Notes: a model not told the origin generated them from the sequence alone. 64,000 nucleotides of DNA from Kiritimatiellia bacterium (GCA_028718125.1 JAQUMN010000005.1:3784-67783), one strand, 5' to 3'. Positions 2,247-59,157 are shown, counted from the first letter of the stretch. A program made the numbers and translations.

Positions 2247-2249
2247 GCA

Positions 2250-3563: not shown

Positions 3564-3578
3564 GGCGATTCCCTCTCG

Positions 3579-5287: not shown

Positions 5288-5824
5288 TTGTACGTGGTCG
5301 CGGCGGCGGCATCTTTTCTATTGTTGAGCCGGAGCCCGGAGGGCAACGAGGAATTACGCAGGACACTGGTCGGAGAGATTTTATTGGTGTGTCCCAATGA
5401 GGTTCTGCGCACCTTCGCCTTGTTTGTGGCGGTCGGCACCGTGCATGTCGTCTTTCGCCGCCCCTTCCTGCTTCTCTCGTTCAACCCGGATCGCGGCCGT
5501 TCAGAAAGATTGCGTTTGTGGTTTTGGGATTTTCTTTTTTACGCGCTTTTCGGCGTTGTTGTAACCAGTTTTGTTCGAATGGGCGGCGTGTTACTGGTCT
5601 TCTCGTTCCTCATAATTCCAGCTGTGTGCGCCAATATTTTCGCAAAGTCGTTGAGGACGCAACTTGCCTTGGGATGGCTCGTGGCAACGTTGTCCAGCGT
5701 TGCAGGATTGTATGCTTCATATCGGCTTGATCTGCCGACCGGTGCGGCGATTGTCTGCGCGCTTGGGCTGGCCCTGTTACTGGCAGGAATCGGCCGGGCT
5801 ATAGACATTATGATCAAAAGGTGA
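5288..5824 (+). pseudogene. 5'-truncated metal ABC transporter permease fragment (ZnuB/MntB-like)
   Basis: 178-aa ORF. It matches only the C-terminal half of ZnuB-type permeases (IIPAVCANIFAKSLRTQLALGWLVATLSSVAGLYASY...). No N-terminal half and no partner ATPase/SBP genes are present. It sits at an apparent island boundary. Confidence 0.5.
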
Positions 5825-7331: not shown

Positions 7332-8077
7332 TTGAAAAGCCCTCACGAGTGGCTGAACAAGATTGACCTACTGGCCGGGACCTCGACCAACGGGATCGTT
7401 ATTCACAACAGAATTCAGCAACTCTCCCTTTTTTTACCTTCACCGCAAGATATAAAAACCCGGCCGATTTCACATTTAGACCAAAGTGTGAAACAGATGG
7501 CCGAAAATGAGGAAAATCCAAGCGGGAATCTTGCGGAAAACAGCCCGAATTCCGCAAATGTGAAATTATCTGTCGAAATGCCTCTTGGCAACATGCCTGC
7601 CGATACTGGGACACAGCCACACGAAGTAATATCTCTCACCGACACTCGTGTAAACGCACAGATGCCAAGCCCCGCTCCCGCGCAAAAGCGCAGAAAGCCG
7701 CTACGGCATTATGAACAATTCGGGGAGACGATCCGCTATCTCACGTGGGATGAGTGGCATAAACTTCTCGATTGCATTGAGGATTACCGGCACAAGCTGA
7801 TTATTTCAGAAATACGAAATACGTGAAAAAGGCCGGTCCGGATCGAGAATACGGGAATGACTCGAAGGGGCGAAAGCTCCAACTGATAACCTCACACTCG
7901 CTTCGCCACAGCCATATCATGCACTATATCCACATTCACAAATTGTCTTTGTCAATTGTCCAGAAGCAGGTCGGCCATCGAATGCTGAAAGCAACAAGCG
8001 TGTATTTGAACCCATCCGAAGAAGCGGTTGCCAATGCTTATAACGCTGTAACGAGAGACGATCACCCTTCAGTCTGA
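7332..8077 (+). pseudogene. degenerate tyrosine recombinase/integrase (frameshifted, internally deleted)
   Basis: Two overlapping ORFs (7332-7826 and 7823-8077) in different frames. The first ends ...LTWDEWHKLLDCIEDYRHKLIISEIRNT (catalytic-domain start, RISE-like box I). The second carries HSLRHSH (HxxR box II) and the ...VYLNPSE tyrosine region. N-terminal part is low-complexity and not integrase-like. Confidence 0.45.
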
Positions 8078-17088: not shown

Positions 17089-17089
17089 A

Positions 17090-20205: not shown

Positions 20206-20225
20206 TCAAAAAAGGAAATACGAAC

Positions 20226-20915
20226 ATGGACAACGCAAAACCAAATAAAGACATGGGTATCATCTATGACTTTCTGGCAAAAACAGCTAACAGATTGGAG
20301 GCCAAATTACTGGATGCTTGCCGACAAAGTGATGAACCCATGGCGTTGAGTATTCTTACTGAATTGCTCGATGTTTCAAACGTTAAACGTGTATCGGAAA
20401 GCGCCATAGCGGATATGCCGAACGAGATCGCGATCCCGACATATATGCTGAGCACGCTCACGATTCAGGAAGCCTGCGAAGTTCTAACGAAAACCATGGA
20501 TGAAGATCTGCGGTTTGCGACAGGGCTGGTTGTTGCACCTATGAAATATGCCGTAACGCGGCTGTTGCAGTTCGAGCTGAAGAGAAAGTCTGCTGTAGCG
20601 GCAGAGGGCGATCAGCAGGCAGTGGCCCGTCTTCTGATCGGTTTGCATAATCACGATCATAAGCTGTTCATGACTTGGCACAGTCATCCTGGTTCCGGTG
20701 CGAATTCGACTATGCCATCGCCAATCGATATGGATTTCCATCGGCGACTGGAGGTCGGGAACTACCCGGTGATTGGGGGTATTGTCAATAGGCAGGGATA
20801 CGTGCGTTTCTTCTCGTACAAACGGCCGTTCAGGGTTTCGATCTATGGAAAAGGAATGGAGGTAGTAAATGAACAACACAATGTTTTTAAACTCGATACG
20901 ATCAGTGCGGTTTAA
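20226..20915 (+). CDS. JAB/JAMM metalloprotease, deubiquitinase-like (BilC-like)
   Basis: JAMM motif WHSHPGSG...S..D (HSHP...PSPIDMD) and an upstream Glu. Confidence 0.7.
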   Translation: MDNAKPNKDMGIIYDFLAKTANRLEAKLLDACRQSDEPMALSILTELLDVSNVKRVSESAIADMPNEIAIPTYMLSTLTIQEACEVLTKTMDEDLRFATGLVVAPMKYAVTRLLQFELKRKSAVAAEGDQQAVARLLIGLHNHDHKLFMTWHSHPGSGANSTMPSPIDMDFHRRLEVGNYPVIGGIVNRQGYVRFFSYKRPFRVSIYGKGMEVVNEQHNVFKLDTISAV

Positions 20916-21678
20916 TTCCAACGGTTTTCATCCTGAGAAATTGGAGGAAGGCCAGAAATCTGCAACGGCCAGCCAGGAGCAGTTGCCGGGATTCAATCAG
21001 CAGAACCTTCGGAACGCCCGGATTCAGATGATTGGATGTGGCGGCATTGGCGGTTCCATTTTGGACAACCTTGTGCGGAAGGGATGTGGACACGTTGATG
21101 TTTACGATGGTGACGATGTTGAACTTGGCAATCTCGGACGGCAGAAGTTTTTCCCGTCCGATGTCGGGAAAAACAAAGCGCTCTGCGGTGCGCGAAACGC
21201 CATGCCCCATGCTTCCTGGCCGACCGAGATTGTTGCTCATCCCGTGTGGTTTGAGGATGCGGTGAACCATGGCATGGTCGGCGGCGCGAGTGCCGCGATT
21301 GTGGGGCCTGACAGGGATAGCACAAGGGTCTATTCCAGCAGGTACTTCTATAAAATGTGCCCGGTACTCTTTGTGGGGATCGGTACACGCGCCGAACATG
21401 GATACGTGTTTGTGCAGAAGCCTGGCGAGGCATGTTTTGCATGTCTTTTTCCTGATGCCACGACAAACAAACGTGCACCGTGTCCTGGCACACCGGCGAT
21501 GATTGACATCCTGCTGGTTACCGCCGGGCTCGTGCTTACGGCATTGGATGCTCTCCTGATGCCGGGGCGAAAGATCAATTGGAATTATTGGGATATCTAT
21601 CCGTCTGGAGCCATTTTAACGCAGCCATTGACTATTGAACGGCGGAAGGATTGCCCGATATGCGGGAAGTTCGGTTAA
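20869..21678 (+). CDS. E1-like ThiF/MoeB-family adenylyltransferase (BilD-like)
   Basis: IQMIGCGGIGGSILDNLVRKGCGHVDVYDGDDVELGNLGRQ Rossmann/ThiF motif. Zn-site CFAC...CPIC. GGAGG RBS. Overlaps the JAB gene by 47 nt. Confidence 0.8.
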   Translation: MNNTMFLNSIRSVRFNSNGFHPEKLEEGQKSATASQEQLPGFNQQNLRNARIQMIGCGGIGGSILDNLVRKGCGHVDVYDGDDVELGNLGRQKFFPSDVGKNKALCGARNAMPHASWPTEIVAHPVWFEDAVNHGMVGGASAAIVGPDRDSTRVYSSRYFYKMCPVLFVGIGTRAEHGYVFVQKPGEACFACLFPDATTNKRAPCPGTPAMIDILLVTAGLVLTALDALLMPGRKINWNYWDIYPSGAILTQPLTIERRKDCPICGKFG

Positions 21679-25510: not shown

Positions 25511-25945
25511 TTAAGTGGTACTGATCGACACGATTGTCTGGTGCTCCTGGCGTATTTTTTCGAATGCGCTCTGGCGAGCAGAGACAGTTCTTTTTGCAAG
25601 AATGCAGCGCAGTCTATTTGCAGAGAAATGGCGCAGTTCTTGCCGCGTTTTGAGGGTTGCGACATAGCTGATAACTTCTTCTGGGAGGTTCAAAAGATTC
25701 ATAATTTGTGTTACATTAGCTCGAGAAATGCCGTTTTCCCTGGCGATTCTAGCTCTGGTTAGTTCCGGATCAGCTAGCAGGGCCTTCTGCCAAGCAAGAG
25801 CGGTTTGTACGGGGTTCTTGGACGTGCCGGGCAAAGATGATTCGGGCACGTTTGGCCTTGTGGCTTGCTCGTAGGCTACGACCGGATATGGGAAAGGATG
25901 CGCAATAAACGGACGCGCGCCCCACCTGGGAAATGGGATGCCCAT
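25511..25945 (-). CDS. ParB-HTH-like small DNA-binding protein (paralog A)
   Basis: IARENGISRANVTQIMNLLNLPEEVISYV resembles the ParB/Spo0J HTH (..SHVANLLRLLELPEEV..). N-terminus MGIPFPRWGARPFIAHP is shared with paralog B. Confidence 0.5.
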   Translation of the reverse strand: MGIPFPRWGARPFIAHPFPYPVVAYEQATRPNVPESSLPGTSKNPVQTALAWQKALLADPELTRARIARENGISRANVTQIMNLLNLPEEVISYVATLKTRQELRHFSANRLRCILAKRTVSARQSAFEKIRQEHQTIVSISTT

Positions 25946-26286
25946 GACGATGGAGATAAGGTCATAGTTCGTATCGGGCAGCGGCCTGCGGAGCCAACCC
26001 TTTGGAAATACGAACTTCGGGTCTCATCTTCACTTCCCTATAATATTCAAGTATTTTCCGGGGAATCCTTAATCAAGTACCTGCGAAAAGTTCGTATGTC
26101 GCACTTGATGGTGCAAACAGATAACGAACATTATCGGTATCATTTGTTCTTCAGCGATCATAAATCACTTCCGTCGTTTTCCCTTCTGTTTTGTCATATC
26201 TCCATACCCCGACTGTCAGTCATCGTGGGATCCAACGAAAATAATGCCACTGGCAAGTGATCATAAGATGAGGCATATTGGTCGTC

Positions 26287-28749
26287 ATGGAAGCGAACGA
26301 CCCAAAGTCTCTCATATTACGAAATAAGATCGATACAGTTCGGCGACAATTGTACGAATTTGAATCGCAGACATTGTTGCTGAAGGATCTACTCCGACAA
26401 CTTGAAAAGCAGCAAGCCGCACGGTCAGGCCCATCAGTATCTTCCCCCACTGCGTTGGTTCAGTCACCGCTTCACTGGACGGATGACAACGTGCGATTAT
26501 TCGCCTCGCTTTTTCGTGGTCGAGAGGATGTGTTCCCACGGCGATGGGAAAGCCGAGCTGGAAAAAGCGGATATTCACCCGTTTGCAGGAATGAATGGAA
26601 GCGCAATATCTGCCCAAAGCCAAAAGGAAAGTGTCATGATTGTCTCCATAAAGATTACGTGCCGCTGACTCTGGATCACATCCGCCAGCATCTCTCCGGG
26701 CGCGTGACCATCGGCGTCTATCCTCTGTTGCAAAACGAGACATGCCATTTTCTAGCGGTGGATTTCGATAAAAGCACATGGAGGGAGGATGTTACCGCAT
26801 TTATCCGGGTATGTAGCCAGCACAAAATAGCCTATGCTATGGAACGATCCCGGTCAGGCCATGGCGCACACGTTTGGTTTTTCTTCGAGCATCCTCTGCC
26901 CGCGCGGTTGGCCCGGCGTTTTGGTTGTGCACTATTGACAGAAACCATGGATACTCGTCATCAGGTCGGTTTAGATTCCTATGACCGGCTGTTTCCCAGC
27001 CAGGACACCATGCCTAAGGGCCAATTCGGCAATCTGATAGCACTTCCATTGCAAGCGGAGCCGGCTCGTTCTGGCAACAGTCTGTTTGTCGACGACCGGT
27101 TTATCCCGTTTGCCGATCAATGGGCATTTCTGAATACGATTGGACGTTTGCCCGAAACCGAAGTTCGGGCAATCGAGGAAGACGCGGCGCGACGTGGGCG
27201 CATTTTGGGTGTCCGGGCAGTGATCAGCGAAGATGACGAACAGCCCTGGAACACACCGCCTTCAGGCCAAAAACAGGTGCCTATAACCGGTCCGTTGCCA
27301 TCAACAATCGAGATCGTGTATGCCAATATGCTGTTTATACCGAAGGCGGTACTACCATCCGGCCTGATTAATCGGCTCATCCGGCTGGCCGCCATTCAAA
27401 ATCCGGAATTTTACCGAGCACAAGCCATGCGACAATCCACGTTCGGAAAACCCCGGATTATTTCGTGCGCGGAGGTATTGGAAAAATACCTCGCGTTACC
27501 AAGGGCGTGTTTAGATGACGTGCAATTGCTCCTAACCGAATTGGGTATTCACACTGTTTTATCAGACAAAAGATGTGCCGGGAAACCATTGCACGTCCAA
27601 TTCCGGGGGACGTTATCACCGGAACAAGAACAGGCGGTTAGCGCAGTTTGCGACCATGACTTTGGTGTGATCTCTGCGCCGCCGGCTTTCGGAAAAACCG
27701 TAGTCGGGGCTAAAATCATTGCCAATCATGGCGTTAACACGCTGATTCTGGTCTGTCGGCAACAGTTGTTGGACCAGTGGCGTCAACGCCTGGCCACGTT
27801 TTTAGACCTCCCGATTGAATCTATCGGGTTGATCGGGGGCGGAAAACGGAAACCAACAGGATTGATCGATGTGGCGATGATCCAATCGTTGATACGACAG
27901 GGCATTGTCGCTGATACGGTGGCAACGTATGGGCATGTTATTCTCGACGAATGTCATCACGGCTCAGCGGTGACCCACGAGTTGATCCTTCGCCAAGCGC
28001 ATGCCCGATACATTACGGGATTGACGGCGACACCCACACGGAAAGACGGACATCATCCCATCGTCTTTATGCAATGCGGCCCCATCCGTTACGCGTTAAG
28101 CGGTAAACAGTCCGCCCAACACGGACTTTTCTCCCATCGTGTCGTCACTCGACTGACCGGGACGGACACGATTGGCCCTGAAGAGCAGATTCAAATGCAG
28201 GACATCTACTCGGCCATTATACATGACGAGAACCGGACAAGTCTGATCGTCAATGACATTCGCGCGTCCATCACCAAGGGGAAAACTCCGTTAGTGCTGA
28301 CCGAACGCCGCGAACATTTGGATACTCTGGCAAAGCGCCTTACACCAGTTACCCGGCATCTAATCATCCTTCATGGGAACATGGGGATCAAACAGCGTCG
28401 GGAAATTATGGCCAGACTAGCCGCCGTACCAGAGAACGAATCTCGCATTCTGCTTTCCACCGGTAGATACATCGGTGAAGGCTTCGATGACTCACGGCTG
28501 GACTGCCTGTTTCTGACAATGCCCATCTCCTGGAAAGGTACGCTTCAGCAGTACGCCGGCCGCCTGCATCGCCTTCATCATGCCAAGCGTGAAGTCATCA
28601 TCTATGATTATGTGGATGCCAATATTCCGATTGCTCGCCGCATGTTCGAGAAGCGAAAGAAGGGGTATGCCGCTATGGGGTATGAACTGGAGGACAGTAA
28701 AATTCAGGCAGAGATACCGCTTCCGAATGACCCCTTATTGAATTTGTAG
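26287..28749 (+). CDS. primase-polymerase (AEP-like) domain fused to SF2 DEAD/DEAH helicase
   Basis: N-terminal half has a Cys/His cluster and ...VYPLLQNETCHFLAVDFDK...GHGAHVWFFF (prim-pol style). C-terminal half has helicase motifs I (ISAPPAFGKTVVG), II (VILDECHHGS), III (GLTATPTRKDG) and VI (QQYAGRLHR). The track start at 26278 is TTG; the ATG at 26287 is preferred. Confidence 0.7.
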   Translation: MEANDPKSLILRNKIDTVRRQLYEFESQTLLLKDLLRQLEKQQAARSGPSVSSPTALVQSPLHWTDDNVRLFASLFRGREDVFPRRWESRAGKSGYSPVCRNEWKRNICPKPKGKCHDCLHKDYVPLTLDHIRQHLSGRVTIGVYPLLQNETCHFLAVDFDKSTWREDVTAFIRVCSQHKIAYAMERSRSGHGAHVWFFFEHPLPARLARRFGCALLTETMDTRHQVGLDSYDRLFPSQDTMPKGQFGNLIALPLQAEPARSGNSLFVDDRFIPFADQWAFLNTIGRLPETEVRAIEEDAARRGRILGVRAVISEDDEQPWNTPPSGQKQVPITGPLPSTIEIVYANMLFIPKAVLPSGLINRLIRLAAIQNPEFYRAQAMRQSTFGKPRIISCAEVLEKYLALPRACLDDVQLLLTELGIHTVLSDKRCAGKPLHVQFRGTLSPEQEQAVSAVCDHDFGVISAPPAFGKTVVGAKIIANHGVNTLILVCRQQLLDQWRQRLATFLDLPIESIGLIGGGKRKPTGLIDVAMIQSLIRQGIVADTVATYGHVILDECHHGSAVTHELILRQAHARYITGLTATPTRKDGHHPIVFMQCGPIRYALSGKQSAQHGLFSHRVVTRLTGTDTIGPEEQIQMQDIYSAIIHDENRTSLIVNDIRASITKGKTPLVLTERREHLDTLAKRLTPVTRHLIILHGNMGIKQRREIMARLAAVPENESRILLSTGRYIGEGFDDSRLDCLFLTMPISWKGTLQQYAGRLHRLHHAKREVIIYDYVDANIPIARRMFEKRKKGYAAMGYELEDSKIQAEIPLPNDPLLNL

Positions 28750-28767
28750 TCTGAATATGGAGACTGA

Positions 28768-29568
28768 TTATCCAACGTCATCCAGGCGGGACAGGACATC
28801 TTGTTTCAAGAGATCGTATGCCTCCTGATGGGAATACGCAATTCCGTCACGTAATAGGTCGTCGGTATCCTGAAGGAACTCTGGTCTGAGGATCTTGCTC
28901 TCCATGTTCAATAGGTATTCCCTGGCCGTCACTCGCAATCTTAATGCCGACATATACCGGTGGAAGCATTGGATGATGCGCATCGGTTTCGCCTGTCCTT
29001 GCGTCAATCCGAGCCACAAATCGAAAAGGTCCCGTCCTTTCCTGCGCTGATACAAGGCCCGAAGCTTAGTGCCCAGTAATTCTTCCAGCCGGAAGATCGG
29101 GATTTCGCAACGTCCATTGAACCATCGTGATTTCACGCTGAAAGGACATTTTTCCAGACCAAGAACTGAAAAATGCTCTCGCGAATTGATCTCCACTTTC
29201 AAACGTAATGGCGTGATCGGCAGCGATTCGGATTGCATCCTGAAGATCAGGTTGACAACTCCCGGTCCCTGTTTCCGCCGTGGTTTTCCCAAAAACGGCA
29301 TCAAGACTTCGCGAACGGCATCGAAAATCGGTCCGATAGGACCGGGAACCATCTGAACAAGGTCAATATCTTCCGAGTAACGCGCCGGCGGCGAGAGGCG
29401 GATTTTATGCAGAGCCGTACCGCCGCGAAACGCCAGCTGCGCTGATAATACCGGATGGGCAAAAAGATTAACCAGGACACGGCTGATGATCAGGTCCTGC
29501 TCGACCATGTTCTCGTATTTCCACGGCGCAAAGGCCTTCCATTCAGTAATGAACGGAATCGGAATCAC
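28768..29568 (-). CDS. abiEii: AbiEii-family nucleotidyltransferase toxin (DUF1814)
   Basis: RGGTALHKI...YSEDIDL NTase motif (GT..., DID). 266 aa. 4-nt overlap with the upstream antitoxin. Confidence 0.8.
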   Translation of the reverse strand: MIPIPFITEWKAFAPWKYENMVEQDLIISRVLVNLFAHPVLSAQLAFRGGTALHKIRLSPPARYSEDIDLVQMVPGPIGPIFDAVREVLMPFLGKPRRKQGPGVVNLIFRMQSESLPITPLRLKVEINSREHFSVLGLEKCPFSVKSRWFNGRCEIPIFRLEELLGTKLRALYQRRKGRDLFDLWLGLTQGQAKPMRIIQCFHRYMSALRLRVTAREYLLNMESKILRPEFLQDTDDLLRDGIAYSHQEAYDLLKQDVLSRLDDVG

Positions 29569-30383
29569 GTTAAGTCCCCTTCAACATCCGTATTGAGCCA
29601 TACATTCCAGCGTTTATCCCGTTTAGACCCCTTGATCGGCAGTGATGGATGAAGCCGAACTGGTAAAGGCGCTTGTTTTGCCATCCAATCATGAAATTTG
29701 GTCGCTTTGCCTGCGAATTCCGTTTGTTCCAGCAACCACCCGAGCCTTTGCGCACAGGACAGGCAATCATCCGCCTTCGCGGCTTGAACCAGACGGCGGG
29801 GATCGATCTTTTCGTGAAGCTCCTGGAGAACGGTCAACACACGTCCCAGGCCACCAGCCCGGCGATAATAGCGCACCACATCCAGCGCCGTCGCTTCCGG
29901 CGTGGAAACCGGCAGATACCCTACATACCCCTTCATCTGTTCACGCGGCGTTGTTGCGATATTGGTCTTGCGGAAAAAACGGATCGCTATGCCCCGACAT
30001 CGGATATCCCGCATAGGGCGGTCCGTCACAACATGGTATGCTTGAACTTTTTGGTGGGACGCACCGTGGTAAGCGGCGGCGGATAGCACGCCGACATAAA
30101 ACGGGCGTTTTATGTATTTCATCAAATCGTTGATAAACCAGTCCGGTGGCAAGATCCCGGTGGCCCGATGCTCCAACGGTATGATGGCATAAAATCCACG
30201 ATAGATACGGGCCAAGCGCTTTTTCACAACCAACCTGGAAGCAGCACGATCAAAAGCCATCCGACTGAGTTCCAAAGCGGCAAAGGCTTCATCACGGGTA
30301 AACGTATAGAACCCGTGCATCTGCCTGTCATCTATCCATGCGGAAAGCGATAGGTTTGATTGATCCTTGGTATTCATTTTCAA
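29565..30383 (-). CDS. abiEi: AbiEi antitoxin / transcriptional regulator (COG5340-like)
   Basis: 272 aa. N-terminal wHTH (FTRDEAFAALELSRMAFDRAASRLVVKKRLARIYRGFY), a C-terminal domain, and a position directly upstream of abiEii. Confidence 0.75.
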   Translation of the reverse strand: MKMNTKDQSNLSLSAWIDDRQMHGFYTFTRDEAFAALELSRMAFDRAASRLVVKKRLARIYRGFYAIIPLEHRATGILPPDWFINDLMKYIKRPFYVGVLSAAAYHGASHQKVQAYHVVTDRPMRDIRCRGIAIRFFRKTNIATTPREQMKGYVGYLPVSTPEATALDVVRYYRRAGGLGRVLTVLQELHEKIDPRRLVQAAKADDCLSCAQRLGWLLEQTEFAGKATKFHDWMAKQAPLPVRLHPSLPIKGSKRDKRWNVWLNTDVEGDLT

Positions 30384-30487
30384 CCTGTGTTATCTAATGC
30401 ATAGCAAGACATATTTTGTCCGTTTATGCAATAATTATTTCAAGCGGATAAAACAAGATATTCCTTCGTTATTAAGCATTTTTATTC

Positions 30488-30511
30488 GGTTGGGTCTGTT
30501 GGTACTCATTT
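30488..30511. promoter_or_regulatory. conserved 24-bp motif (copy 2)
   Basis: GGTTGGGTCTGTTGGTACTCATTT. Lies 105 bp upstream of the abiEi start on the minus strand. Confidence 0.35.
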
Positions 30512-30583
30512 TGCATGCTCAAGAACACGGGTAAATCAGGTTTGATACCAAGGGACACAAGAAGAATTGGAACTCATCCGCAA

Positions 30584-30997
30584 TTATCGCGGGCATTGTT
30601 GGCGTAGTTGCCGGAATGCGGCGAGTCTGGCAGTGATGCTTTTTCTAGCGAGAAGGCTTCTGAGATTCCGTTCGGAAAAGTGGCGGATGTCTTCCCTGAC
30701 AGTCAAAGAAGTAACATAGGAAAGAATCTCTTTCGGCAGATCGAGGAGATTCATAATCTGCGTCACCCGTGCGCGTGAAACCCCTGTATTTCGAGCTATT
30801 CCAGCCATATTGAGCGTATTGTCGTCGGCTAACATCTGACGCCATGCCAAGGCGAGATGAACCGGATGCTGAGCAGGTTTTGCGGGTGCCACGTCGTGAT
30901 ACATATTGTCGTGTAAGTCATCCCCGTAGCCCTCAGGATATGAAATCGGGTGCACAATGAACGGCTTGGCGCCCCACCTGGAAAAGGGGATGCCCAT
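30584..30997 (-). CDS. ParB-HTH-like small DNA-binding protein (paralog B)
   Basis: MGIPFSRWGAKPFIVHP N-terminus and GIARNTGVSRARVTQIMNLLDLPKEILSYV HTH. About 55% identical to paralog A. The first 80-90 nt, including the 5'UTR, are about 90% identical at DNA level to copy A. Confidence 0.5.
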   Translation of the reverse strand: MGIPFSRWGAKPFIVHPISYPEGYGDDLHDNMYHDVAPAKPAQHPVHLALAWRQMLADDNTLNMAGIARNTGVSRARVTQIMNLLDLPKEILSYVTSLTVREDIRHFSERNLRSLLARKSITARLAAFRQLRQQCPR

Positions 30998-31290
30998 GAC
31001 GATGGAAATGAGGTCAAAGTTCGTATCGGGTAGCGGTCTGCGGAGCCACATTGACCACGGCTATAACCTGTGTTTTCTCTCCGCAGCGGCTTTTATTCCT
31101 TCCTTTCCATCTGGGGAAATCTTCATATTCCCCTTGTTTTTCAAGGAGCTACCATCGCATCCAACCGAGGCTCCAAAATCAATCAGAGCGGCAATTTTTC
31201 CCGGGTTATAGCTGACAATCCTAAAACAAGGTTTTACCGAACAGAGCTCGAACCTGTGGTTGCTGCGTAAGTGCCACGCATATTCGACGC

Positions 31291-31719
31291 TTATATTCCC
31301 TTGATTGCGAATAAGAAGAACGCTGCGATGGCAGCGAGAAGGAGCACCATAAAGATGATGGCCCAGCGACTTTCCTTTTTCTCTGGTTTGTGGTCTTGGA
31401 CGGCTTTGACCGTGATGTCTTCTCTACCCATTTCAACCAGTCGGTACAGTCCCATCCGCCAGACGATAATGATGGCCACAATTGCACCCGTAATGGCTGA
31501 CAAGTGGCCAATGTGAAACTTATAGAAGACTACAATAGCCACGCTGACGGCAATGGGAATTCCGACAATCCAAGCAAGCCAGTTATGACGATAGCGACAT
31601 CCGCAGAGAGGGCAACGGAATGCGCCATTCTCTTTCTTCATATCCATGCGTGCCGTACACCACGGGCAATATCCTATGCTTTGGAATGGCATCTTATTTT
31701 CCTTTTGGCGAACACTCAA
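31291..31719 (-). CDS. membrane protein with N-terminal zinc-ribbon (CxxC x2)
   Basis: CPWC...CPLC, followed by 3 TM helices. Confidence 0.45.
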   Translation of the reverse strand: MSVRQKENKMPFQSIGYCPWCTARMDMKKENGAFRCPLCGCRYRHNWLAWIVGIPIAVSVAIVVFYKFHIGHLSAITGAIVAIIIVWRMGLYRLVEMGREDITVKAVQDHKPEKKESRWAIIFMVLLLAAIAAFFLFAIKGI

Positions 31720-31764
31720 TTCAACGGGGTGGCGATAGTGTTGAACTTGCGGTTCGATAGTTTT

Positions 31765-32145
31765 TTATTTTTTTCTTAATATAACATCGCAGAAGTACGA
31801 AAGGAAACTTTGGTTTGAGTCCATAGGGCAAAAGAATGTCAGAAGAAATGCAATGACCACGAAAGGAATCCAAATAGTCAACATCAATCGTTTAGAAATA
31901 GTCAATGGAACTTTGTACATAACGATAGCAAGAATAATCTGATAAGTGCTTGTACCGATGAGGAGCGGGAACGAAAAAAGGCAAGGGTATGCCGCACCCC
32001 CAAGACCCATAGGGATTCTTAAGACATTCCACGAAAGTCCCAGAAAAAAAATACCCCAGAATAGAATGGCCCACAAATAACAAAGCAATGTGGCAAGCAC
32101 AAACCATTTGAATGCTCGCAATACCATTCTGCTCTGTTCTTTCAT
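31765..32145 (-). CDS. small multi-pass membrane protein
   Basis: 126 aa, 4 hydrophobic helices. AT-rich codon usage unlike its neighbours. Confidence 0.4.
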   Translation of the reverse strand: MKEQSRMVLRAFKWFVLATLLCYLWAILFWGIFFLGLSWNVLRIPMGLGGAAYPCLFSFPLLIGTSTYQIILAIVMYKVPLTISKRLMLTIWIPFVVIAFLLTFFCPMDSNQSFLSYFCDVILRKK

Positions 32146-32223
32146 CTTGTTTTATCGTGCGTTTACGGACCGCGACATGACATGCCGTCAATGCTCTGGT
32201 TCGATGCTTCTCTTTTTCCTTTT

Positions 32224-32601
32224 TTAAGCCAGTAGATTACCCGTACTATAATCGTTTTTTTTGCATTTGTTCCTTGCATTGATTATCATAAGGACGCCAA
32301 CAAAAAGAAATATCGCCGACAACATAAAGTAAAAGATAAATACAATAACACTGCCGCCGCTGAATCGACTTGATGCCAGAAATGTGTAGAAAGACCCAAT
32401 GAGAAATATTATTCCAGCAAATCGTTTCGCAATATTCAACTTTTTGATTATGCCGACAATACACAACATACTAACCACGGCTATTGTAATTGAGATAATC
32501 TTAAGCCGATAAGTATATAGTATGACTTTTAGCACTTGGACAATTGCTATATATGCAAGCAGTATTAAGGCCACAATATTTAGAATTCGCGTCTTTGTCA
32601 T
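32224..32601 (-). CDS. small multi-pass membrane protein
   Basis: 125 aa, 4 hydrophobic helices. AT-rich. Confidence 0.4.
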   Translation of the reverse strand: MTKTRILNIVALILLAYIAIVQVLKVILYTYRLKIISITIAVVSMLCIVGIIKKLNIAKRFAGIIFLIGSFYTFLASSRFSGGSVIVFIFYFMLSAIFLFVGVLMIINARNKCKKNDYSTGNLLA

Positions 32602-32839
32602 TTCTTACCTTCTATGATCGGCAATGAGGTTGAGGGGTACTATGCATCATCTTTTGTTGTTACGAGTGGGGCAAATCAACCCAAACCTGAAATTCAAAGT
32701 GATAATATCGTCTACAATCCGTGCGTTAAAGCACAAAACGGCACAATTTGACCAACTGGAAGGGCGCGGATAATCCATTCCACTGCCATATCTACAAATC
32801 ATTGAACTTGAGCGGCATCTGTCAGGTTATATCCGTGGT

Positions 32840-32854
32840 CTGCCCGAGGAGCCA
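32840..32854 (+). repeat. 15-bp copy of the tRNA-Asn 3' end (att-like direct repeat)
   Basis: CTGCCCGAGGAGCCA, identical to 57222-57236 (the last 15 nt of the tRNA including CCA). A chance 15-mer match in 64 kb is expected about 1e-4 times. Confidence 0.55.
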
Positions 32855-32856
32855 CA

Positions 32857-33004
32857 CAGTAGAACAAAGTTCACTGTGTGGCGGTGCAGTGAAGCGCAGC
32901 TTCTACTGCACTGACCCCCTTGTTTCCCCGCAGTAGAACGGAGTTCACTGCGGGGTGGTGCAGTGAGCCGTAGGCTCTACTGCACTACTCTCCTTGTTTC
33001 TTTT
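32857..33004 (+). repeat. two tandem about 74-bp units, each forming a nested hairpin
   Basis: Each unit has the form CAGTAGAA-n5-TTCACTG-loop10-CAGTGA(A)-n7/9-T(T)CTACTG-CACT...CCTTGTTTC. Both stems are preserved in both units while the loops differ. Confidence 0.6.
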
Positions 33005-33368
33005 CAAAGACGAGAATCAAGGGCTCCGTTTTCCGTTTTGAAACCCCACAGGGAGATGAACTATCGAAAGAACTATTATCGGAATTAGACAACTATTCTT
33101 GTAGTGGGCTAACAGCAATGCGTGGTTACGACACAGCAATGAAAAGCCAAGTCATTTATCTCAGATTGTCAATGGTCATTTTTGAGCAGACACATACCAC
33201 GGCAGGATATGGTCGGCTTGTTTTTTGTTCAATTTAAGGTAGTATGCAACAGTATTTGGATTTCCACCATAAGTGGACAAGCCTGATTTAGGTTGCCAAT
33301 TTGCTTGCCACGTCTGCTGCAAAGTGGCGCTTCGCGAAGTGACGTAGCGGACACAGGAGGCGGCGAGA

Positions 33369-34292
33369 GTGAGTCCCCATATTGCAGGCTTGGTCATTGG
33401 CGGTTTCTTGCCAGCCGTGTTGCTTGGTTTTTTCGGCGTTATGCAAAAGACCTGCATGCGCGCCAGTATCGGCATTGGGCCGTTTTTTGTCGTTGTCGGC
33501 ACCGCGATCGCGGGTTCAGGGCTTGCCTTTCAGATGTGGACCCCGCTCGGAAGATTCTCCCTCACATCCGTCCTGTGTGCCATGGCGGCCGGCGTGGTTT
33601 GGTCTTCGGGAGTCTGTCTGGTCCTGTTGGCCGTCAGTCGTCTGGGTGGCAGTATCAGCCAGTTGGCCCCGCTGTACAATGTGAACACGCTGGTAGCGGT
33701 TGCGCTGGGGTTGCTGATCTTCTCGGAATGGAGACAGGTCCGGCCCGTCTTCCTGGCGATTGGCGCCGTAATGATCGTGGTCGGTTCCGTCTTTGCAGCA
33801 AGAGCGTCAAGGGAGACGGGTGACGAACACTCGGTCGCCGGCCGCACGTCTCCTCGATTACGAAGAGCGCTCATCGTCGGTTGCGGGTTAATGGCGGCGA
33901 TCTGTTATGGATTCAAGAGCCCATTGTTTAAGGCTGGCATGTGCGCGGGCGCAGGCGTTGGTCCGTTCTTTTTTGCCATGGGATTCGCGGTCATCTGTTT
34001 TGGCATCATCGCTATCTTGGTGACGGGAGATCGCCGCATTTCCCATGCCTCCGGCAGTTACGCTTTGTTCTCGGGCTTATTTTTTTCGGCAGGAAACGGT
34101 TTGGTGTTGCTGGCCATCAGCCGATATGGTGCCAACATCAGCCAGTTGGCCCCATTGTATAACATGAACACATTGGTGGTCGTTCTGTTGGGCCTATTGT
34201 TTTATTCGGAATGGAAACAGATCAAACCAGTTTTGCTGATCGCCGGCGCCGTGTTGATCGTTCTTGGCGCTGCAATTGTCGGCAAAGCATGA
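33369..34292 (+). CDS. DMT-superfamily transporter (GlcU/RbsU-like sugar uptake permease)
   Basis: 307 aa, 10 TM. Two internally duplicated halves, each ending ...SQLAPLYN(V/M)NTLV...LLGLL(I/F)(F/Y)SEW(R/K)Q. Confidence 0.65.
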   Translation: MSPHIAGLVIGGFLPAVLLGFFGVMQKTCMRASIGIGPFFVVVGTAIAGSGLAFQMWTPLGRFSLTSVLCAMAAGVVWSSGVCLVLLAVSRLGGSISQLAPLYNVNTLVAVALGLLIFSEWRQVRPVFLAIGAVMIVVGSVFAARASRETGDEHSVAGRTSPRLRRALIVGCGLMAAICYGFKSPLFKAGMCAGAGVGPFFFAMGFAVICFGIIAILVTGDRRISHASGSYALFSGLFFSAGNGLVLLAISRYGANISQLAPLYNMNTLVVVLLGLLFYSEWKQIKPVLLIAGAVLIVLGAAIVGKA

Positions 34293-34620
34293 AATTCAAG
34301 TAACGCGCCAAAACTTGTCAAGCATCCTTCGATGTTGATATACGAAAGGCAACCCGAAAAACACAATGAAAACAACCAAAACAGTTATCGATTTGAGCGC
34401 TTGCGTGGCGGACGTCGTTTTAGCAATTTCGCTTTCCTGTGATGGTTGGTTACAGAAGAACATCTTTGTTCTTTTTGAATCGAAATATTACCTTTGAATT
34501 GACATTGCGCGGCGGGCGCCTCGTGCTCCGTCCCCGCCCCGGTGTGCATCGGGATCTACCCGACGAGCGCGGGTTCCGGGGCTGCGTTGTGAAGATCGCA
34601 ATCGTAGCCGCGGCCTTCCC

Positions 34621-37600
34621 TTACCCGCGTGATCCAGGCACCTTTATTTCGACGGTATGCTCGTGATGGTCGTCAACCAGCGCGATGGCGGCCAAGGGCT
34701 GCTCGTGGCCATCGACGATCATAGCGGGCGGTTGGGCAGCATCCGTCCCGACCCGGTTCACGGAGATGTGATAGAATGTTTCGCGGTAGCGATAATGAAG
34801 TTTGAACGATTCCCAGTCACGCGGCAGCCGCGGGCTCACCCGCAGGTGGTCCATTTCGAGCCGCAGACCGAGCAGCGTTTCGACGATCAGCCGGTACATC
34901 CAGCCCGCCGACCCCGTATACCAGCTCCAACCGCCGCGGCCGGTGTGCGGCGCGACGGCGTAGATATCGGCGGCAACGACATACGGCTCCACTTTATACC
35001 GGTTGACCTGCGAGGGATTCATGGCATGACGGATCGGGTTGAGCAGCTCAAAAAGCTCCCAGGCTCGCTCGATTTCGCCCAGTTCCGCGAATGCCATGAC
35101 CGCCCAGATCGCGCCATGGGTGTATTGGCCGCCGTTCTCGCGCACGCCGGGCGCATAGCCTTTGATGTAGCCGGGTTCAAGCGCGGATTTGTCGAACGGC
35201 GGATCAAAGAGCTGGATTAACTGTGCGTTGCGCCGGACCAGGCGTTGATCCACGCGCTCCATGGCCAGCCGTGCCCGCACCGGATCGGCCGCGCCTGAAA
35301 GCACCGCCCAGCTCTGAGCGATGGAGTCGATCGCGCATTCCTTGTTGGTAGCCGACCCGAGCGGTGTGCCGTCGTCGAAATACGCGCGCCGGTACCAGTC
35401 GCCATCCCACCCATGCTCTTCGATGGCCTGCCGCAACTGCGCGGCCTGCGCGGCGCAGTAGTCGGCAAACTCGGTCTCGCCCCGGCTGCGGGCCAGTTCC
35501 ACGAACTGGTGCAGCACATCGTAGAGTAAAAACGCCAGCCAGACGCTCTCCCCCCGACCTTTTTTGCCGACGAGGTTCATCCCGTCGTTCCAGTCGCCGG
35601 AGCCGATCAAGGGCAGCCCGTGTGCGCCGAATCGGAGGCCGTGTTTGATCGCCCGCACGCAGTGCTCATAGAGCGTGCCGTCTTCCCCCGAGCGTTGCGG
35701 CAGGTCGTAGTAGGCTTCCTCATCGGCATTCACGGGACGGCCTTCCAGGAACGGGACGCGTTCATCGAGCACGCCGGTGTCGCCGGTCGTCTTCACATAT
35801 CGGCAGGTCGCGTAGGGCAGCCAGATAAAATCGTCGGAGCAATGCGTGCGCACGCCCCGGCCGCTGGACGGATGCCACCAGTGCTGGACGTCGCCTTCGC
35901 CGAACTGGCGGCCGGCGCATCGTAACACATGTTCGCGGGCGACCCACGGGGCGGCATGCAGTAACGCGCTCGTGTCCTGAAGCTGGTCGCGGAACCCGTA
36001 GGCGCCGCCGGATTGGTAATACCCGCTGCGTCCCCACGTGCGACCGACCAGCGTCTGATACTCCAGCCAGCCGTTGACCAGCAGGTTCAAGGCGGGATCC
36101 GGCGTCTCGGCGTATACCACGCCCAGGGTCCGCTTCCAGAAGTCCCAGACATTTTCCAGGGCCAGCCGCGCGCTGGCCGGGCCGCTAAACCGCCGGACCA
36201 GCTGATGGGCCTCCTCGACAGAGTTGCCGGCGCCCAGCACAAAGACCAGTTCGCGTTCCTGGCCCCCGTCCAGGTCGAATGTCACCTGCAGCGCCGCGCA
36301 GGGGTCGAAGCTGGCCCCCGTCTGGCCGGACAGCTGCGCTTGGCGCATGGCGGCGGGACTGGCTGGCGTGCCGTTGCGCCCCAGAAACTCCGTGCGGTTG
36401 CCGGTCATCGTCCGCTGGGCGTCGCTGACGTTTACGAAAACCGTCTTGCCGGCGAACTCCCGGTTATACACATTGCGGGCAAAGAGTGCGCCCGTCGTCG
36501 GGTCGATCTCGGTGACGATGTGCATCAAGTTCGAATGCCGCCACTGGCCGAGGACCCATTCCCAGTACCCCGTGGCCGACAGGCGCCGCGTCCGTCCCGA
36601 GCCGTTGCGCACCTTGATCACCGCCAGTTTAACGGGTGCGTCCAGCGCGACGTAGGTCCACAGTTCCGAGCTGATTCCCAGGTGCGTTAACTCAAACACG
36701 CTGTAGCCGAAGCCGTGCCGGCAGATGTAGGTACCGGGAGCGCGCGCGGGCAAGGGAGTCGGCGACCAGAACTGACCGGTTTCCTCGTCGCGGAGATAAA
36801 ACGCCTCCCCGCTGGGGTCCCCCACGGGATCGTTGTGCCATGGGGTCAGGCGGAATTCGTGGGCGTTATCAACCCAGGTGTAGGCCGAGCCGCTTTCGGT
36901 GATCACCGTGCCGATCTGGGGGTTGGCCAGGACGTTGGCCCACGGCGCGGGGGTGGTCTGCCCGGGCGCGAGCGAAATCACATATTCGCGGCCATCGGAC
37001 GTGAAACCGCCCAGGCCGTTGAAAAAGATGCATTCCCGTTTGTTCGGCACGGTTTTTTCCGCCGGCAGCATGGCCCGCGTGGCGATGAAGCGCGGAACCT
37101 TCCGTTCCACCGGTGTCTGCCGCTCCACTTGCTCGGCCAGGGTTTCGGCGCTGTCGGTGAGGATCACGCGCGCGACGGTCTGCAAGAGGACCCGCTCTTC
37201 CTCCGAGAGCTGTTCGCTGCGCCGCAGAAAAATCCCGCCGGGCTTGTCGACGCGTTGCGCTTCCGTGCTGGCGGCGATCAAGCCCAGGATGCGGTCCTGT
37301 AAAACCTGGCGATAGCCGGAAAAATCTTCGTTCAGGATGACCAGGTCCACCGTCAAGCCTTTCTCGCGCCAGTAGGCATGGGCCTGGAGCATCTGTTTGA
37401 CCAGGTCGATCCGATGCACGTCGGCGATGCGCATCAGGACGATCGGCAGGTCGCCCGAGATCCCGAAGGTCCACAAGCCGGACTGGTTGAGCCGGTTCCG
37501 GGTGAGAATGCCGGTGCTGGCGCGGTGGAACGGATTGGCGTGAATGACGGAACTGGCCAGCTGGGCATACACCTGCGCCTCTGCCTCGGTCACCTGCAAC

Positions 37601-57161: not shown

Positions 57162-57236
57162 TCCGCGATAGCTCAATGGTAGAGCGGGTGGCTGTTAACC
57201 ACTAGGTTGCAGGTTCGAGCCCTGCCCGAGGAGCCA
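57162..57236 (+). tRNA. tRNA-Asn (anticodon GTT), with two acceptor-stem mismatches
   Basis: Hand-folded. D-arm GCTC/AATGGTA/GAGC. Anticodon arm GGTGG/CTGTTAA/CCACT. Variable loop AGGTT. T-arm GCAGG/TTCGAGC/CCTGC. 3' acceptor strand CCGAGGA + G + CCA. 5' acceptor strand TCCGCGA gives G4-A69 and A7-C66 mismatches. Confidence 0.6.
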
Positions 57237-58925
57237 GCCCCTTGGCATTACGAACTTATCCCCCTCCTTCGGGGAAACGCCTGTAAATAGGTCGGTTGCG
57301 TAAAGGGTCATGTTAACCAGATACCATTTAGTTCGTATTCGCGCCTTGAATACTCCTGGTTCAGCGGACATCTGATCCTTTTCCGGGTCAAAGTGGTTAA
57401 CAGTCACTTCCTTCACCAGAAGGCGAATTAACTCCTTCTGATCCTCCGGCGGCAACACCCGAAATACTTTTCCGAACTGCAGCAAGCTGTCGGCAATCAC
57501 CCTGGCATCTGTAACCACTTTCTCCCGGTACTGAATGTCGATCTTGACCTTCTCCCGCTCCAACTCAACCTGCCGTTTTTCCTCGGCCAACTGTTCCGCT
57601 TCTCGGATCATTTCATCGCTGATTCGTTTTGCGCCCTCTTTCTTCGCTGTGTCCATGAAATTCTTGACGGCTACAGACAGCTTATCGAACTGCTGGTCAA
57701 GCTCGGCCAGTTTGGCCTTCAGTGGTTTGATACCCTTATTCTTGGTCTCGTCGGCCGCTTTAATGGTCGCCTTAATGATATCCGGATGCTTCCCGATCTC
57801 GCCGATGTACCCGATGATCAGATCCTCAAATGGCCGCGCCGGGATGTTCCGAACCGAGCACTTGGCCTCTCCGCCTTCTTTTGAGACGTTCGTACAGGTG
57901 TAGTATAGGTATTGATTGCCGTTCTTATCCTTCTTGCCGGCGGGCTTTGGGGTGAGGCTGAGGCCACAATGACCGCATTTCAACAGGCCCTTCAATAGAT
58001 GAACATGCCGGTCCTGATGCAGGAAGATCGGGCCTTCCTTTTCTTTTGGACGCAACGCCTCGTTTGCCGACTGCCAGAGTTGCTGAGACACGATGGCAGG
58101 ATGTTCGGAGGGATATTCCTTGCCGCCATTGATGACGACCCCCTTATAGATTGGATTCGCTATCATCTCCTGTATACGACCACTGACAAACCTCTTATCG
58201 CCAACCACCTTGGTTGATCCGTCTTTTTGAACAAGGATTCGCTTTCGCGTGCGCCACCCCATCTTATTTAGGTACTTGGCCACGGCCGTCGGATTCTTGA
58301 GCTGGACCGCCTCGTCGAATGCTTTCGTCACAAGTTCTTGCTCGGCTGGTTTCAGGATAAGCTTCTGGTTTTTTTTGTCGTAGTCGTATCCCGTTGGCAC
58401 CCAGCCGCCGTTCCACTTGCCCTGCTGGGCGCGCTGGATGAGCTTATGCCGTGTGCGCTCACGGGTCTGTTCGCGCTCGAATTCCGCAAAGCTCAGAAGC
58501 ATATTCAGGAAAAGCATTCCATGCGGTGTAGCCGTGTCAATCTGCTGTGTAGCGCTGGCAAAGTTTACATTGTGCCGCCGGAGCTCTTCCCATAACCCAT
58601 AGAACTGCCGAAGTGATCGCGACAGCCGATCGAGCTTATAGACCACAATCATATCAACATTGCCGGCCCTTGCCTCGGCCAGCAGATTGTTAATCCCTGG
58701 CCGGTCCATCGTACTCCCCGAATAGCCGGAGTCTTCGAGATGCAGAGCGGACACCCATCCCTCTTCCTTGTGAATGGCAATATAGTGCTCGCAGATGTCC
58801 TTTTGCGCATCAAGTGAACTATACTCCCCCTGCGCCTGGTCGTCTGTTGATACGCGGGTATAGATCGCACATCGAACTGTTTTTGTGGCAACTTGTCTTG
58901 CAGATTGTTTAGAGTTCGTATTCAT
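57195..58925 (-). CDS. large serine recombinase (integrase)
   Basis: N-terminal resolvase catalytic domain (AIYTRVSTDDQ, VVYKLDRLSRS). Recombinase domain. Zn-ribbon (CGHCG...C..C) and a long coiled coil. The last 14 codons are encoded antisense to the tRNA-Asn 3' half. Confidence 0.85.
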   Translation of the reverse strand: MNTNSKQSARQVATKTVRCAIYTRVSTDDQAQGEYSSLDAQKDICEHYIAIHKEEGWVSALHLEDSGYSGSTMDRPGINNLLAEARAGNVDMIVVYKLDRLSRSLRQFYGLWEELRRHNVNFASATQQIDTATPHGMLFLNMLLSFAEFEREQTRERTRHKLIQRAQQGKWNGGWVPTGYDYDKKNQKLILKPAEQELVTKAFDEAVQLKNPTAVAKYLNKMGWRTRKRILVQKDGSTKVVGDKRFVSGRIQEMIANPIYKGVVINGGKEYPSEHPAIVSQQLWQSANEALRPKEKEGPIFLHQDRHVHLLKGLLKCGHCGLSLTPKPAGKKDKNGNQYLYYTCTNVSKEGGEAKCSVRNIPARPFEDLIIGYIGEIGKHPDIIKATIKAADETKNKGIKPLKAKLAELDQQFDKLSVAVKNFMDTAKKEGAKRISDEMIREAEQLAEEKRQVELEREKVKIDIQYREKVVTDARVIADSLLQFGKVFRVLPPEDQKELIRLLVKEVTVNHFDPEKDQMSAEPGVFKARIRTKWYLVNMTLYATDLFTGVSPKEGDKFVMPRGWLLGQGSNLQPSG

Positions 58926-59157
58926 ATACACATGCATAGTATCATATTACGAACTATATGCAACCATATTTATCATACAAAATTTTCTGACCACGACTCC
59001 GCCAGCATCAGCTGGATATACGACTAACCACCGAGTGTCTGTCCTGAGCGAACCTATGGTGAGTAAAATCGAACCAGTCGAAGGGCCGATGGATCGCCAA
59101 GCACCAGATTTTAACCGGCTGGTTCTGAAATAGCCGAAGATTGAATAGCGACCTTGC

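Follow-up and report, generated by a model that had tools for sequence, protein, structure and literature searches.

The tRNA-Asn gene, the copy of its 3' end and the adjoining recombinase

The stretch analysed here (the window) comprises 64,000 nucleotides of a Kiritimatiellia bacterium (GCA_028718125.1 JAQUMN010000005.1:3784-67783) and carries a short copy of the 3' end of a tRNA-Asn gene at the border of a genomic island. Core-like lipopolysaccharide (LPS)-heptose and redox genes (1-5053) are followed by a low-GC island (~5.1-32.85 kb) that encodes ankyrin and HEAT proteins, RadC, NERD, a HerA-like ATPase, JAB/ThiF proteins, an AEP-TOTE primase-helicase and AbiE. Next comes a GC-rich block (32.85-57.16 kb) with EamA, cgs, korAB, UbiA, a polyprenyl synthase, SOD, rubrerythrin, ferritin and a leucine-rich repeat (LRR) protein, and then a second low-GC island that runs from 57.24 kb to past 64 kb. 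The sole tRNA gene of the window, tRNA-Asn(GTT) at 57162..57236 (+), makes up the left half of the attachment (att) site attL. The sole intact recombinase, a large serine recombinase (LSR), is encoded next to it at 57195..58937 (-).

The 15-mer CTGCCCGAGGAGCCA is present exactly, on the same strand, at 32840-32854 (+) and at 57222-57236 (+), the second place being the 3' end of tRNA-Asn, just as a sequence-only reading of this DNA had reported. No third exact copy was found in the 64-kb window, where the only other similar site, at 36544, has 2 mismatches. The chance odds of about 1e-4 given by that reading agree with our own arithmetic (~1.2e-4 for an extra exact copy in 64 kb, both strands); for any 15-mer of tRNA-Asn recurring in the window the expectation is ~7e-3. 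In shuffled windows 0.11 matches were expected at <=2 mismatches, and 3 were reached in 0/100 shuffles. A chance match with no biological meaning, for which nothing speaks beyond the shortness of the repeat, is effectively refuted by these odds, by the identity of the repeated piece as the tRNA 3' terminus, by its orientation and its position at a composition break, and by its surroundings: a palindromic pair of half-sites flanks it, and its centre is common to three other junctions.

The low-GC island does end at the copy, as had been noted, with GC stepping from 0.42-0.49 on the left side to 0.53-0.66 on the right. The sameness of the two loci is confined to exactly 15 nt (5' ..ccgtggt vs ..cgagcc; 3' cacag vs gcccc). 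Logan contigs from two sequencing runs, 100% identical to the window, span 30845-32877 and 31018-32875, and a third covers 32857-34960. Since independent assemblies are identical across the junction, it is real sequence and no chimera of the metagenome-assembled genome or of the assembly. Exact-protein look-ups led to nothing but short Logan contigs, which come from the same strain and match the window identically. Their ends fall within the first hairpin described below and within a GCG repeat at 5303 and so do not speak for variants.

Directly 3' of the copy stand the hairpin tandem repeats that the sequence-only reading had placed there, at 32852..32999 (+): four hairpins of alternating orientation, made up of two 74-bp units, with the first stem starting inside the 15-mer (GCCA). 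The fold has a minimum free energy of -90.9 kcal/mol (z = -8.4), and compensatory changes between the units keep both stems. The hairpins had no Rfam match, a strict terminator scan returned none, and no other copy was found in the 64-kb window.

The gene at the tRNA encodes Resolvase, Recombinase and zinc-ribbon domains (PF00239, 5.6e-40; PF07508, 5.1e-14; PF13408, 4.9e-12) and lacks a C-terminal ParB-like helix-turn-helix (HTH) domain. The notion of tyrosine-type tRNA machinery was therefore not borne out. The tRNA-Asn 3' half, read in antisense, provides the last 13 codons of the LSR gene and its stop, which lies in the anticodon loop. A database search revealed a tight clade of LSR homologues, and at all fetched loci (L003/L004, L008, L011-L013, L015-L020, L023, L024/L025) the gene runs antisense into tRNA-Asn. 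Six distinct homologous recombinases (P0001, P0003, P0006, P0013, P0123 and P0126; 59-94% identity) were found at 13 loci from other genomes, all abutting tRNA-Asn. Together with four window junctions centred on GGAGCCA, they bear out the repeated use of tRNA-Asn that the sequence-only reading had claimed. Named members of the clade belong to Verrucomicrobiota, and the hosts of the system are Kiritimatiellae/Verrucomicrobiota. The tRNA, ~65 nt of promoter and the LSR are kept at 88% among related hosts, and the neighbours of tRNA-Asn are wholly different.

The cargo of the relatives' LSR elements is mostly defence: BREX, DUF4007/PAPS reductase, TIR and AEP-TOTE. L011/L012 and L013 have the same LSR and host flanks and differ beyond DUF4007, where the former carry a PAPS-reductase module and the latter lactamase_B/HEAT/LRR genes, so that cargo appears to be swapped within one element backbone. 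A viral collection held no relatives of the LSR, and a degenerate attL pattern gave 10 chance matches there, none with tRNA-Asn. Neither the LSR of the window nor its HTH fragment B (described below) was found in the contig index. Around 14 loci of the relatives, no second GGAGCCA site with an HTH open reading frame (ORF), as expected of an attR, was seen within 10 kb.

Junctions with a common centre

The four window junctions share the centre GG|AGCCA and lie at 25965-26017, 31017-31070, 32823-32854 and 57.2 kb. They can be written as combinations of left (L) and right (R) half-sites of two types. Junction T (57.2 kb) is tRNA/1R, junction A (25965..26017, +) is 1L/1R, junction B (31017..31070) is 1L/2R, and the junction that contains the copy, DR1 (32823..32854), is 2L followed by the hairpins. 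Junction A is an intact attP-like site of 53 bp with the outer inverted repeat AGTTCGTAT/ATACGAACT. The left half-site 2L (32823..32849, +) is of the P type, as found in the attP of an element: its outer motif, 19 nt away from the centre, is CAGGTTAT, and its inner 10 nt, CTGCCCGAGG, mimic tRNA-Asn positions 62-71. The P-type right half-site 2R (31044..31070, +), GACCACGGCTATAACCTG, is the inverted partner of 32823-32840. Half-site 1L of the neighbouring element, also of the P type, is seen at junction B (31017..31043, +), where it overlaps the first codons of an orphan HTH ORF. At the tRNA, the P-type right half-site 1R (57237..57259, +) bears the motif CGAACTTAT 14 nt after CCA, a distance that is constant in 7/7 distinct attL junctions (the window and six relatives).

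The spacing of the arms is that of serine integrase sites. The motif CGAAC(T/C)T or its complement stands 20 nt from the centre in 1L and 19 nt from it in 2L, 1R and 2R, and the T-arm motif of the tRNA stands 14 nt from the centre in 7/7 distinct attL junctions. In serine integrases attP (~50 bp) and the target site, attB (~40 bp), are imperfect palindromes, and the motif of the zinc-ribbon domain (ZD) is 5 bp nearer the centre in attB than in attP (PMC3783163). The difference between the arms of the window (19-20 nt) and the T-arm (14 nt) reproduces this offset. No motif was found in the right half of attB.

Segments 32823-32840 and 31053-31070 are inverted partners over 18 nt (94%), both equidistant from a GGAGCCA core. 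Joined, 2L and 2R make a 54-bp palindrome centred on GG|AG, the same centre as in the 53-bp site A. About 2e-3 such inverted repeats are expected in the 2-kb region by arithmetic, the condition of equal distance aside. Because 2L and 2R rebuild a palindromic attP around the common centre, we read the 1.8 kb between junction B and DR1 (E3, 31044..32849) as an integrated mini-element, or remnant without a recombinase, whose attP would be 2L/2R and whose attR would be DR1. E3 has the lowest GC of the window and contains three small ORFs without family matches. An insertion sequence or miniature inverted-repeat transposable element with 18-bp terminal inverted repeats was considered for E3 and rejected, since neither a transposase nor a target-site duplication is present and the two arms stand at equal distances from GGAGCCA cores.

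Two observations locate the crossover. Junction B reads CTGC-GGAGCCACA-TTGACC and DR1 reads CTGCCCGA-GGAGCCACA-CAGTAG; as the two differ outside GGAGCCACA, the crossover that made them would lie inside it. The acceptor stems of the relatives are perfect and yet of three sequences, which places the crossover 3' of position 69, in the common GGAGCCA. LSRs cross over at a central dinucleotide and need little identity between attP and attB; here junction B and the diverse stems together confine the crossover to GGAGCCA(CA), the finest resolution attainable in silico. In DR1 the core GGAGCCA occupies 32848-32854, with a probable crossover centre at 32849/32850.

The 15-mer copy is, then, a true site-specific recombination scar tied to tRNA-Asn, and it is best taken as the core of an attR-type junction, DR1, most likely left by LSRs. 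This upholds one part of the earlier description of the copy as the att remnant of a tRNA-Asn element, namely its origin in recombination at that gene. The other part, a simply displaced piece of the tRNA, is not supported. Under an LSR mechanism the left 10 nt, CTGCCCGAGG, would be the tRNA-mimicking inner arm of E3, a P-type half-site, and only AGCCA would come from the target. AGCCA and the hairpins would once have followed a tRNA-Asn gene, so that the hairpins are probably the original 3' flank (B-right) of such a gene. By itself the 15-mer would be a routine att remnant.

A classical alternative would make the segment ~7.3-32.85 kb an island integrated at the 3' end of tRNA-Asn by a tyrosine integrase since decayed, with the 15-mer as its distal direct repeat. 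An integrase pseudogene does lie at the proximal end, near the left end of the left island (7332..8077, +). It consists of two adjacent ORFs, with the middle of the catalytic domain gone and box II (HSLRH..GH..Y) kept, and matches the C-terminus of PF00589 (E 9.5e-6) and phrog_216 (2.5e-9). Tyrosine-type cores typically match a tRNA 3' end over such a length (15-17 bp), and asn tDNAs are classical hotspots (Marcoleta 2016, cited in PMC5704250). However, neither a tRNA nor a tRNA fragment adjoins the integrase remnant, and the copy lies upstream of the tRNA, not downstream. The arm left of the 15-mer and its inverted partner on the right side of junction B are laid out 18-18-18, which is too wide for a tyrosine core and fits an LSR, and no crossovers but those at the LSR centre account for what is read at junction B. 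We therefore consider such an island quite unlikely.

Left of E3, between junctions A and B, lies a decayed element of 5 kb, E1' (25992..31043), which carries an AEP-TOTE primase-helicase gene (26278-28749), AbiEii/AbiEi (28768-30383) and an orphan HTH fragment, B. Its AEP-TOTE gene is 85% DNA-identical to that of the L003 LSR element. Immediately right of junction A, at 25997..26175 (-), is the decayed 3' end of a deleted LSR gene (local alignment score 49 vs 22.3 +/- 3.2 for shuffles). The elements thus form a gradient of decay: E3 has no trace of a recombinase, E1' keeps ~190 bp of an LSR 3' end, and the element at the tRNA has an intact LSR.

The att-arm motif also occurs at the recombinase gene. 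An inverted pair, AGTTCG N31 CGAACT, lies over the LSR promoter and start codon (58905..58963, -), and the pair (AGTTCG N30-32 CGAACT) is kept in L003, L008, L011, L015, L023 and L024, also where the second arm is non-coding. With a spacing near that of attB, it may be an autoregulatory binding site.

The recombinase reading frame and the orphan HTH fragments

Two orphan ParB-HTH fragments of the left island lie left of the cores of junctions A and B. Fragment B (155 aa; 30584..31051, -) corresponds to the C-terminal domain of a split LSR and takes its ATG from the flank just outside the core. Fragment A (25511..25996, -) has 54% protein identity to B, and its 113 nt at the att end (25884-25996) are 84% DNA-identical to 30936-31048. 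At junction A the reading frame is unbroken across the core (..KFVFPKGWLRRPLPDTNYDL..) and reads ..KFVFPKG-W-LRRPLPDTNYDL.. The core is also crossed in frame in other genomes (KFGFPPNWLRRP.. and KFELSTDWLRRQ..), and several orphan homologues start with what is left of the LSR tail and continue with W-L-R, the antisense of ..CGGAGCCA.

When LSR residues 1-568 were fused in silico to fragment B, the product gave a single high-scoring segment pair, residues 14-709 vs 8-701 (E 3e-141), with P0091, an unsplit homologue of 711 aa from Coraliomargarita algicola, and 8 of the 120 best matches covered 91-97% of the fusion. Unsplit homologues are ~710 aa long, and the orphan HTH alone matches the C-termini of unsplit LSRs (E 5e-9 and 7e-11). 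Homologues of the orphan HTH numbered 106 in a word-indexed search and 721 clusters at 50% identity, nearly all of 85-290 aa. P0249 (2009 aa) matches the domain in 22 separate stretches and is apparently a repetitive HTH array. A third orphan ParB-HTH, PHW60_03750 (MDD5677092), is encoded on the same contig ~53 proteins right of the window end, which implies a right island array of ~60-70 kb and a window start within a few kb of the contig start.

The antisense-tRNA end of the LSR, the HTH ORFs that start at the core and the colinear fusion lead us to read attP as lying inside the LSR ORF, so that integration seems to detach the C-terminal ParB-HTH domain. It would leave an LSR of ~575 aa ending in antisense tRNA, and a ParB-HTH of ~150 aa stranded at the far end of the element. 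If this is true, loss and regain of the HTH would be a built-in switch between the free and the integrated form of the recombinase. Such a split would be a simple mechanism for directionality or expression control, and it would account for hundreds of orphan 'ParB-HTH' small ORFs in metagenomes.

History of the array and comparison with known systems

The LSR would read an A(A/G)GTTCG-type motif, which is found in the T-arm of the tRNA in attB (14 nt) and in both outer arms of attP (19-20 nt), and would cross over within the universal GG|AGCCA. The element would then supply just A72-G73-CCA, and any tRNA-Asn would be regenerated. Each newcomer would insert beside the tRNA (B-left) and shove older elements outward, leaving junctions of the P-left half-site of the newer and the P-right half-site of the older element. 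Insertion of E3, then E1', then E1 would give 2L/hairpins (32.85 kb), 1L/2R (31.04 kb) and 1L/1R (25.99 kb), and both the series of junctions and the decay gradient agree with that order. We propose that DR1 is the oldest attR of an LSR array at a copy of tRNA-Asn that once abutted the hairpins and that the head of the array has since been lost, the truncation of an ABC-3 permease gene (5288) reflecting a deletion near the left border; we put the probability of this history at roughly one half. Its weakest step is the formation of the left array at a second tRNA-Asn copy, whose head (tRNA and LSR) would later have been deleted; the gene at 57.2 kb would then be a different copy of tRNA-Asn, occupied at present.

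Several observations weigh against this history. The attR should be downstream of a plus-strand tRNA, and DR1 is 24.4 kb upstream of the sole tRNA-Asn. Bases 1-5053, beyond the left array, look core-like, with their LPS-heptose genes. A search of the left island for a second tRNA-Asn, a tRNA promoter or an LSR at the head of the array found none. The hairpin flank has no ZD-type motif in the attB register. The match between the type-2 attP and the tRNA (15-17 bp) exceeds what LSR systems usually have, and the tyrosine-integrase pseudogene at the left end of the left island keeps the classical alternative alive. Both halves of one LSR gene in one complete element, or a circular form, were not recovered, and no recombination directionality factor (RDF), on which excision by LSRs depends, was identified. 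Neither was a close relative or an empty site in genome and metagenome contig searches; EamA (33369-34292), used as bait for empty sites and synteny in these contigs, returned only relatives of 45% identity, with no tRNA nearby. Both explanations offered by the sequence-only reading, an att remnant parted from its tRNA and a 24.4-kb segment itself bounded by att-like repeats, are thus candidate histories for the place of the copy upstream of the tRNA.

The missing motif in the hairpin flank is what a pseudo-site would lead one to expect. There would never have been a tRNA at 32.85 kb: an LSR element would have hit a secondary site containing GGAGCCACA, and later elements would have piled on. 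Serine integrases are known to use pseudo-sites (PMC3783163), the hairpin itself provides GCCA (its first stem begins GCCACACAGT), and a lost tRNA is no longer needed. On the other hand, the LSR of the relatives sits at a bona fide tRNA-Asn in 13/13 fetched loci, the T-arm motif, the sole conserved feature of attB, would be absent from a pseudo-site, and the head junction of the array would still be missing. On balance a pseudo-site is very unlikely.

The wrong order of the two sites would be accounted for if the 24.4-kb segment between them (hairpins, cgs, korAB, tRNA-Asn) had itself moved. A circle with an attB (tRNA-Asn/hairpins) would have been captured by the LSR into a 2L/1R attP-like junction of an array of at least 100 kb, and DR1 and the tRNA junction would be the two products of this single recombination event. 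Indeed DR1 is P-left/B-right and the tRNA junction B-left/P-right, in direct orientation, and their recombination yields a normal attB as well as an attP of perfect geometry (19/19 nt). Of the 135-kb contig only ~30 kb look core-like, and the third orphan HTH ~53 genes to the right implies a right array of ~60-70 kb. GC at third codon positions is 0.73-0.82 in the segment vs 0.62-0.71 in bases 1-5053. The neighbours of tRNA-Asn are not conserved among related hosts, whereas the tRNA, its promoter and the LSR are. The segment, however, holds just housekeeping and stress genes, with no replication or mobility function, and an earlier excision is needed for the circle. The hybrid attP would mix arms of two types, and the intact LSR would lie in the middle of the array and not beside the tRNA of the array, unlike in all relatives. 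A moved segment is, in our view, unlikely.

A further point that the LSR history leaves unexplained is the acceptor stem of the window tRNA-Asn. Its 5' strand TCCGCGA and 3' strand CCGAGGA form two non-pairs, G4.A69 and A7.C66, both within the 15-mer, and the gene scores 59.2 bits vs ~70.5 bits in relatives. In the five relatives in which the whole tRNA is visible the acceptor stems are perfect (TCGCGGA, CGCCGGA and CTCTGGA). L024 has the same tRNA and promoter, differs only at positions 66/69 (T66/C69) and pairs perfectly. The tRNA of L023, where the element is a different one, has CCGAGGAGCCA as well, and the L023 contig does not reach its 5' strand. By sequence the window tRNA-Asn looks like a recombinant of two tRNA-Asn alleles whose breakpoint falls in the T-arm region, between positions 48 and 66. 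The mismatches C66 and A69 lie left of the proposed crossover, and a crossover at position 71/72 cannot yield such a breakpoint. A crossover 5' of tRNA position 66 would explain the chimeric tRNA and was rejected for the events at junction B, as it predicts CCGA in B or a tRNA shorter by 4 nt. Possible sources of the chimera are homologous exchange with another tRNA-Asn allele or an island exchange anchored on the tRNA. The defect suggests another, functional tRNA-Asn in the genome; this, or a displaced TCGCGGAGCCA end elsewhere, would favour a two-locus model.

The window has further features. The ABC-3 permease fragment (5288..5824, +), directly after the LPS-heptose genes, has lost ~93 N-terminal residues, which points to a deletion or a junction where the island begins on the left. 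Genes for a JAB-domain protein, a ThiF/E1-like protein and a HerA-like ATPase stand in a row in the left island (19573-21678, 16799-18799) and look like a defence module of the ubiquitin-like-conjugation type. An 18-nt stretch common to window 6919-6938 and L003 11793-11812 lies inside the perfect hairpin AATCCGTCAGCCGACGGATT, of which the L003 copy is ~30 nt upstream of tRNA-Asn (chance ~0.04). As a mark of a lost tRNA it was rejected, being in the wrong orientation and near the chance level. Internal tandem repeats of ~70-240 nt (72-78% identity) extend across a 308-aa ORF and a BspA-type LRR gene at 56256-56780, just upstream of tRNA-Asn.

In a wider proposal, which we offer more tentatively than the history of the copy, the LSR clade would be dedicated to tRNA-Asn, with the T-arm as the attB motif and crossover at GG/AGCCA, and would have attP in its own gene, its HTH being amputated by integration and restored by excision or at a tandem junction. 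It would build defence arrays of at least 100 kb in Kiritimatiellae/Verrucomicrobiota and would leave behind attR/attL pairs in the 'wrong' order, through which chromosomal segments like the 24.4-kb cgs-kor block could be looped out or moved elsewhere. Both the chimeric tRNA and the wrong-way pair on either side of 24 kb of housekeeping genes suggest that LSR elements may also reshape the chromosome. A recombinase that needs just a universal tRNA feature in attB would also interest genome engineering.

In its Resolvase, Recombinase and zinc-ribbon architecture the LSR resembles phiC31, Bxb1, A118/LI integrase, SPbeta and TnpX/TndX. As in other LSR elements, the att sites are imperfect palindromes of ~50 bp with the 5-bp shift of the ZD motif (PMC3783163), and the recombinase gene lies beside attP. 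Specific serine-recombinase integrative and mobilizable elements insert within protein genes and disrupt them (PMC5704250). Here, unlike in those elements, a tRNA gene is targeted at its 3' end and regenerated. Also unlike in other LSR elements, attP appears to lie inside the recombinase ORF, an extra C-terminal ParB-like HTH would be detached upon integration, the elements stand in tandem arrays, and the right half of attB appears unconstrained. The LSR would thus act like a tyrosine integrase, targeting a tRNA, sparing the gene and adding islands in tandem.

The repeated use of tRNA-Asn and the accessory and defence cargo recall the asn-tDNA islands of Enterobacteria (the high-pathogenicity island, Klebsiella) and Islander-type islands, as do short direct repeats of the tRNA 3' end at the ends and tandem accretion by the tRNA. 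According to PMC4383910, asn-tDNA islands rely on P4-like tyrosine integrases, and their repeat, a fragment displaced from the tRNA, is found downstream of it. Here, in contrast, an LSR gene adjoins the tRNA, and the repeat, for the most part an attP mimic, stands on the same strand as the visible tRNA and 24.4 kb upstream of it, which sets the locus apart from islands of the Islander type. The hairpins resemble repetitive extragenic palindromic sequences and bacterial interspersed mosaic elements in being intergenic, tandem palindromes of ~30 nt in alternating orientation, with stems kept by compensatory changes; they differ from them in having no Rfam match. Such repeats have many dispersed copies per genome, and one locus was seen here in the 64 kb covered.

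For an integrase gene split by integration, our literature search returned the archaeal SSV type as the only natural precedent. Integrases of the SSV1 type partition their gene to opposite ends of the element (PMC8371274), and here too attP would lie inside the integrase ORF with the halves of the gene parted, although the halves of one element were not seen together. SSV1 encodes the tyrosine recombinase of an archaeal virus, whereas the present enzyme is a serine recombinase of bacterial Kiritimatiellae/Verrucomicrobiota; and, unlike in SSV1, its catalytic and DNA-binding core stays intact, just the C-terminal HTH being removed.

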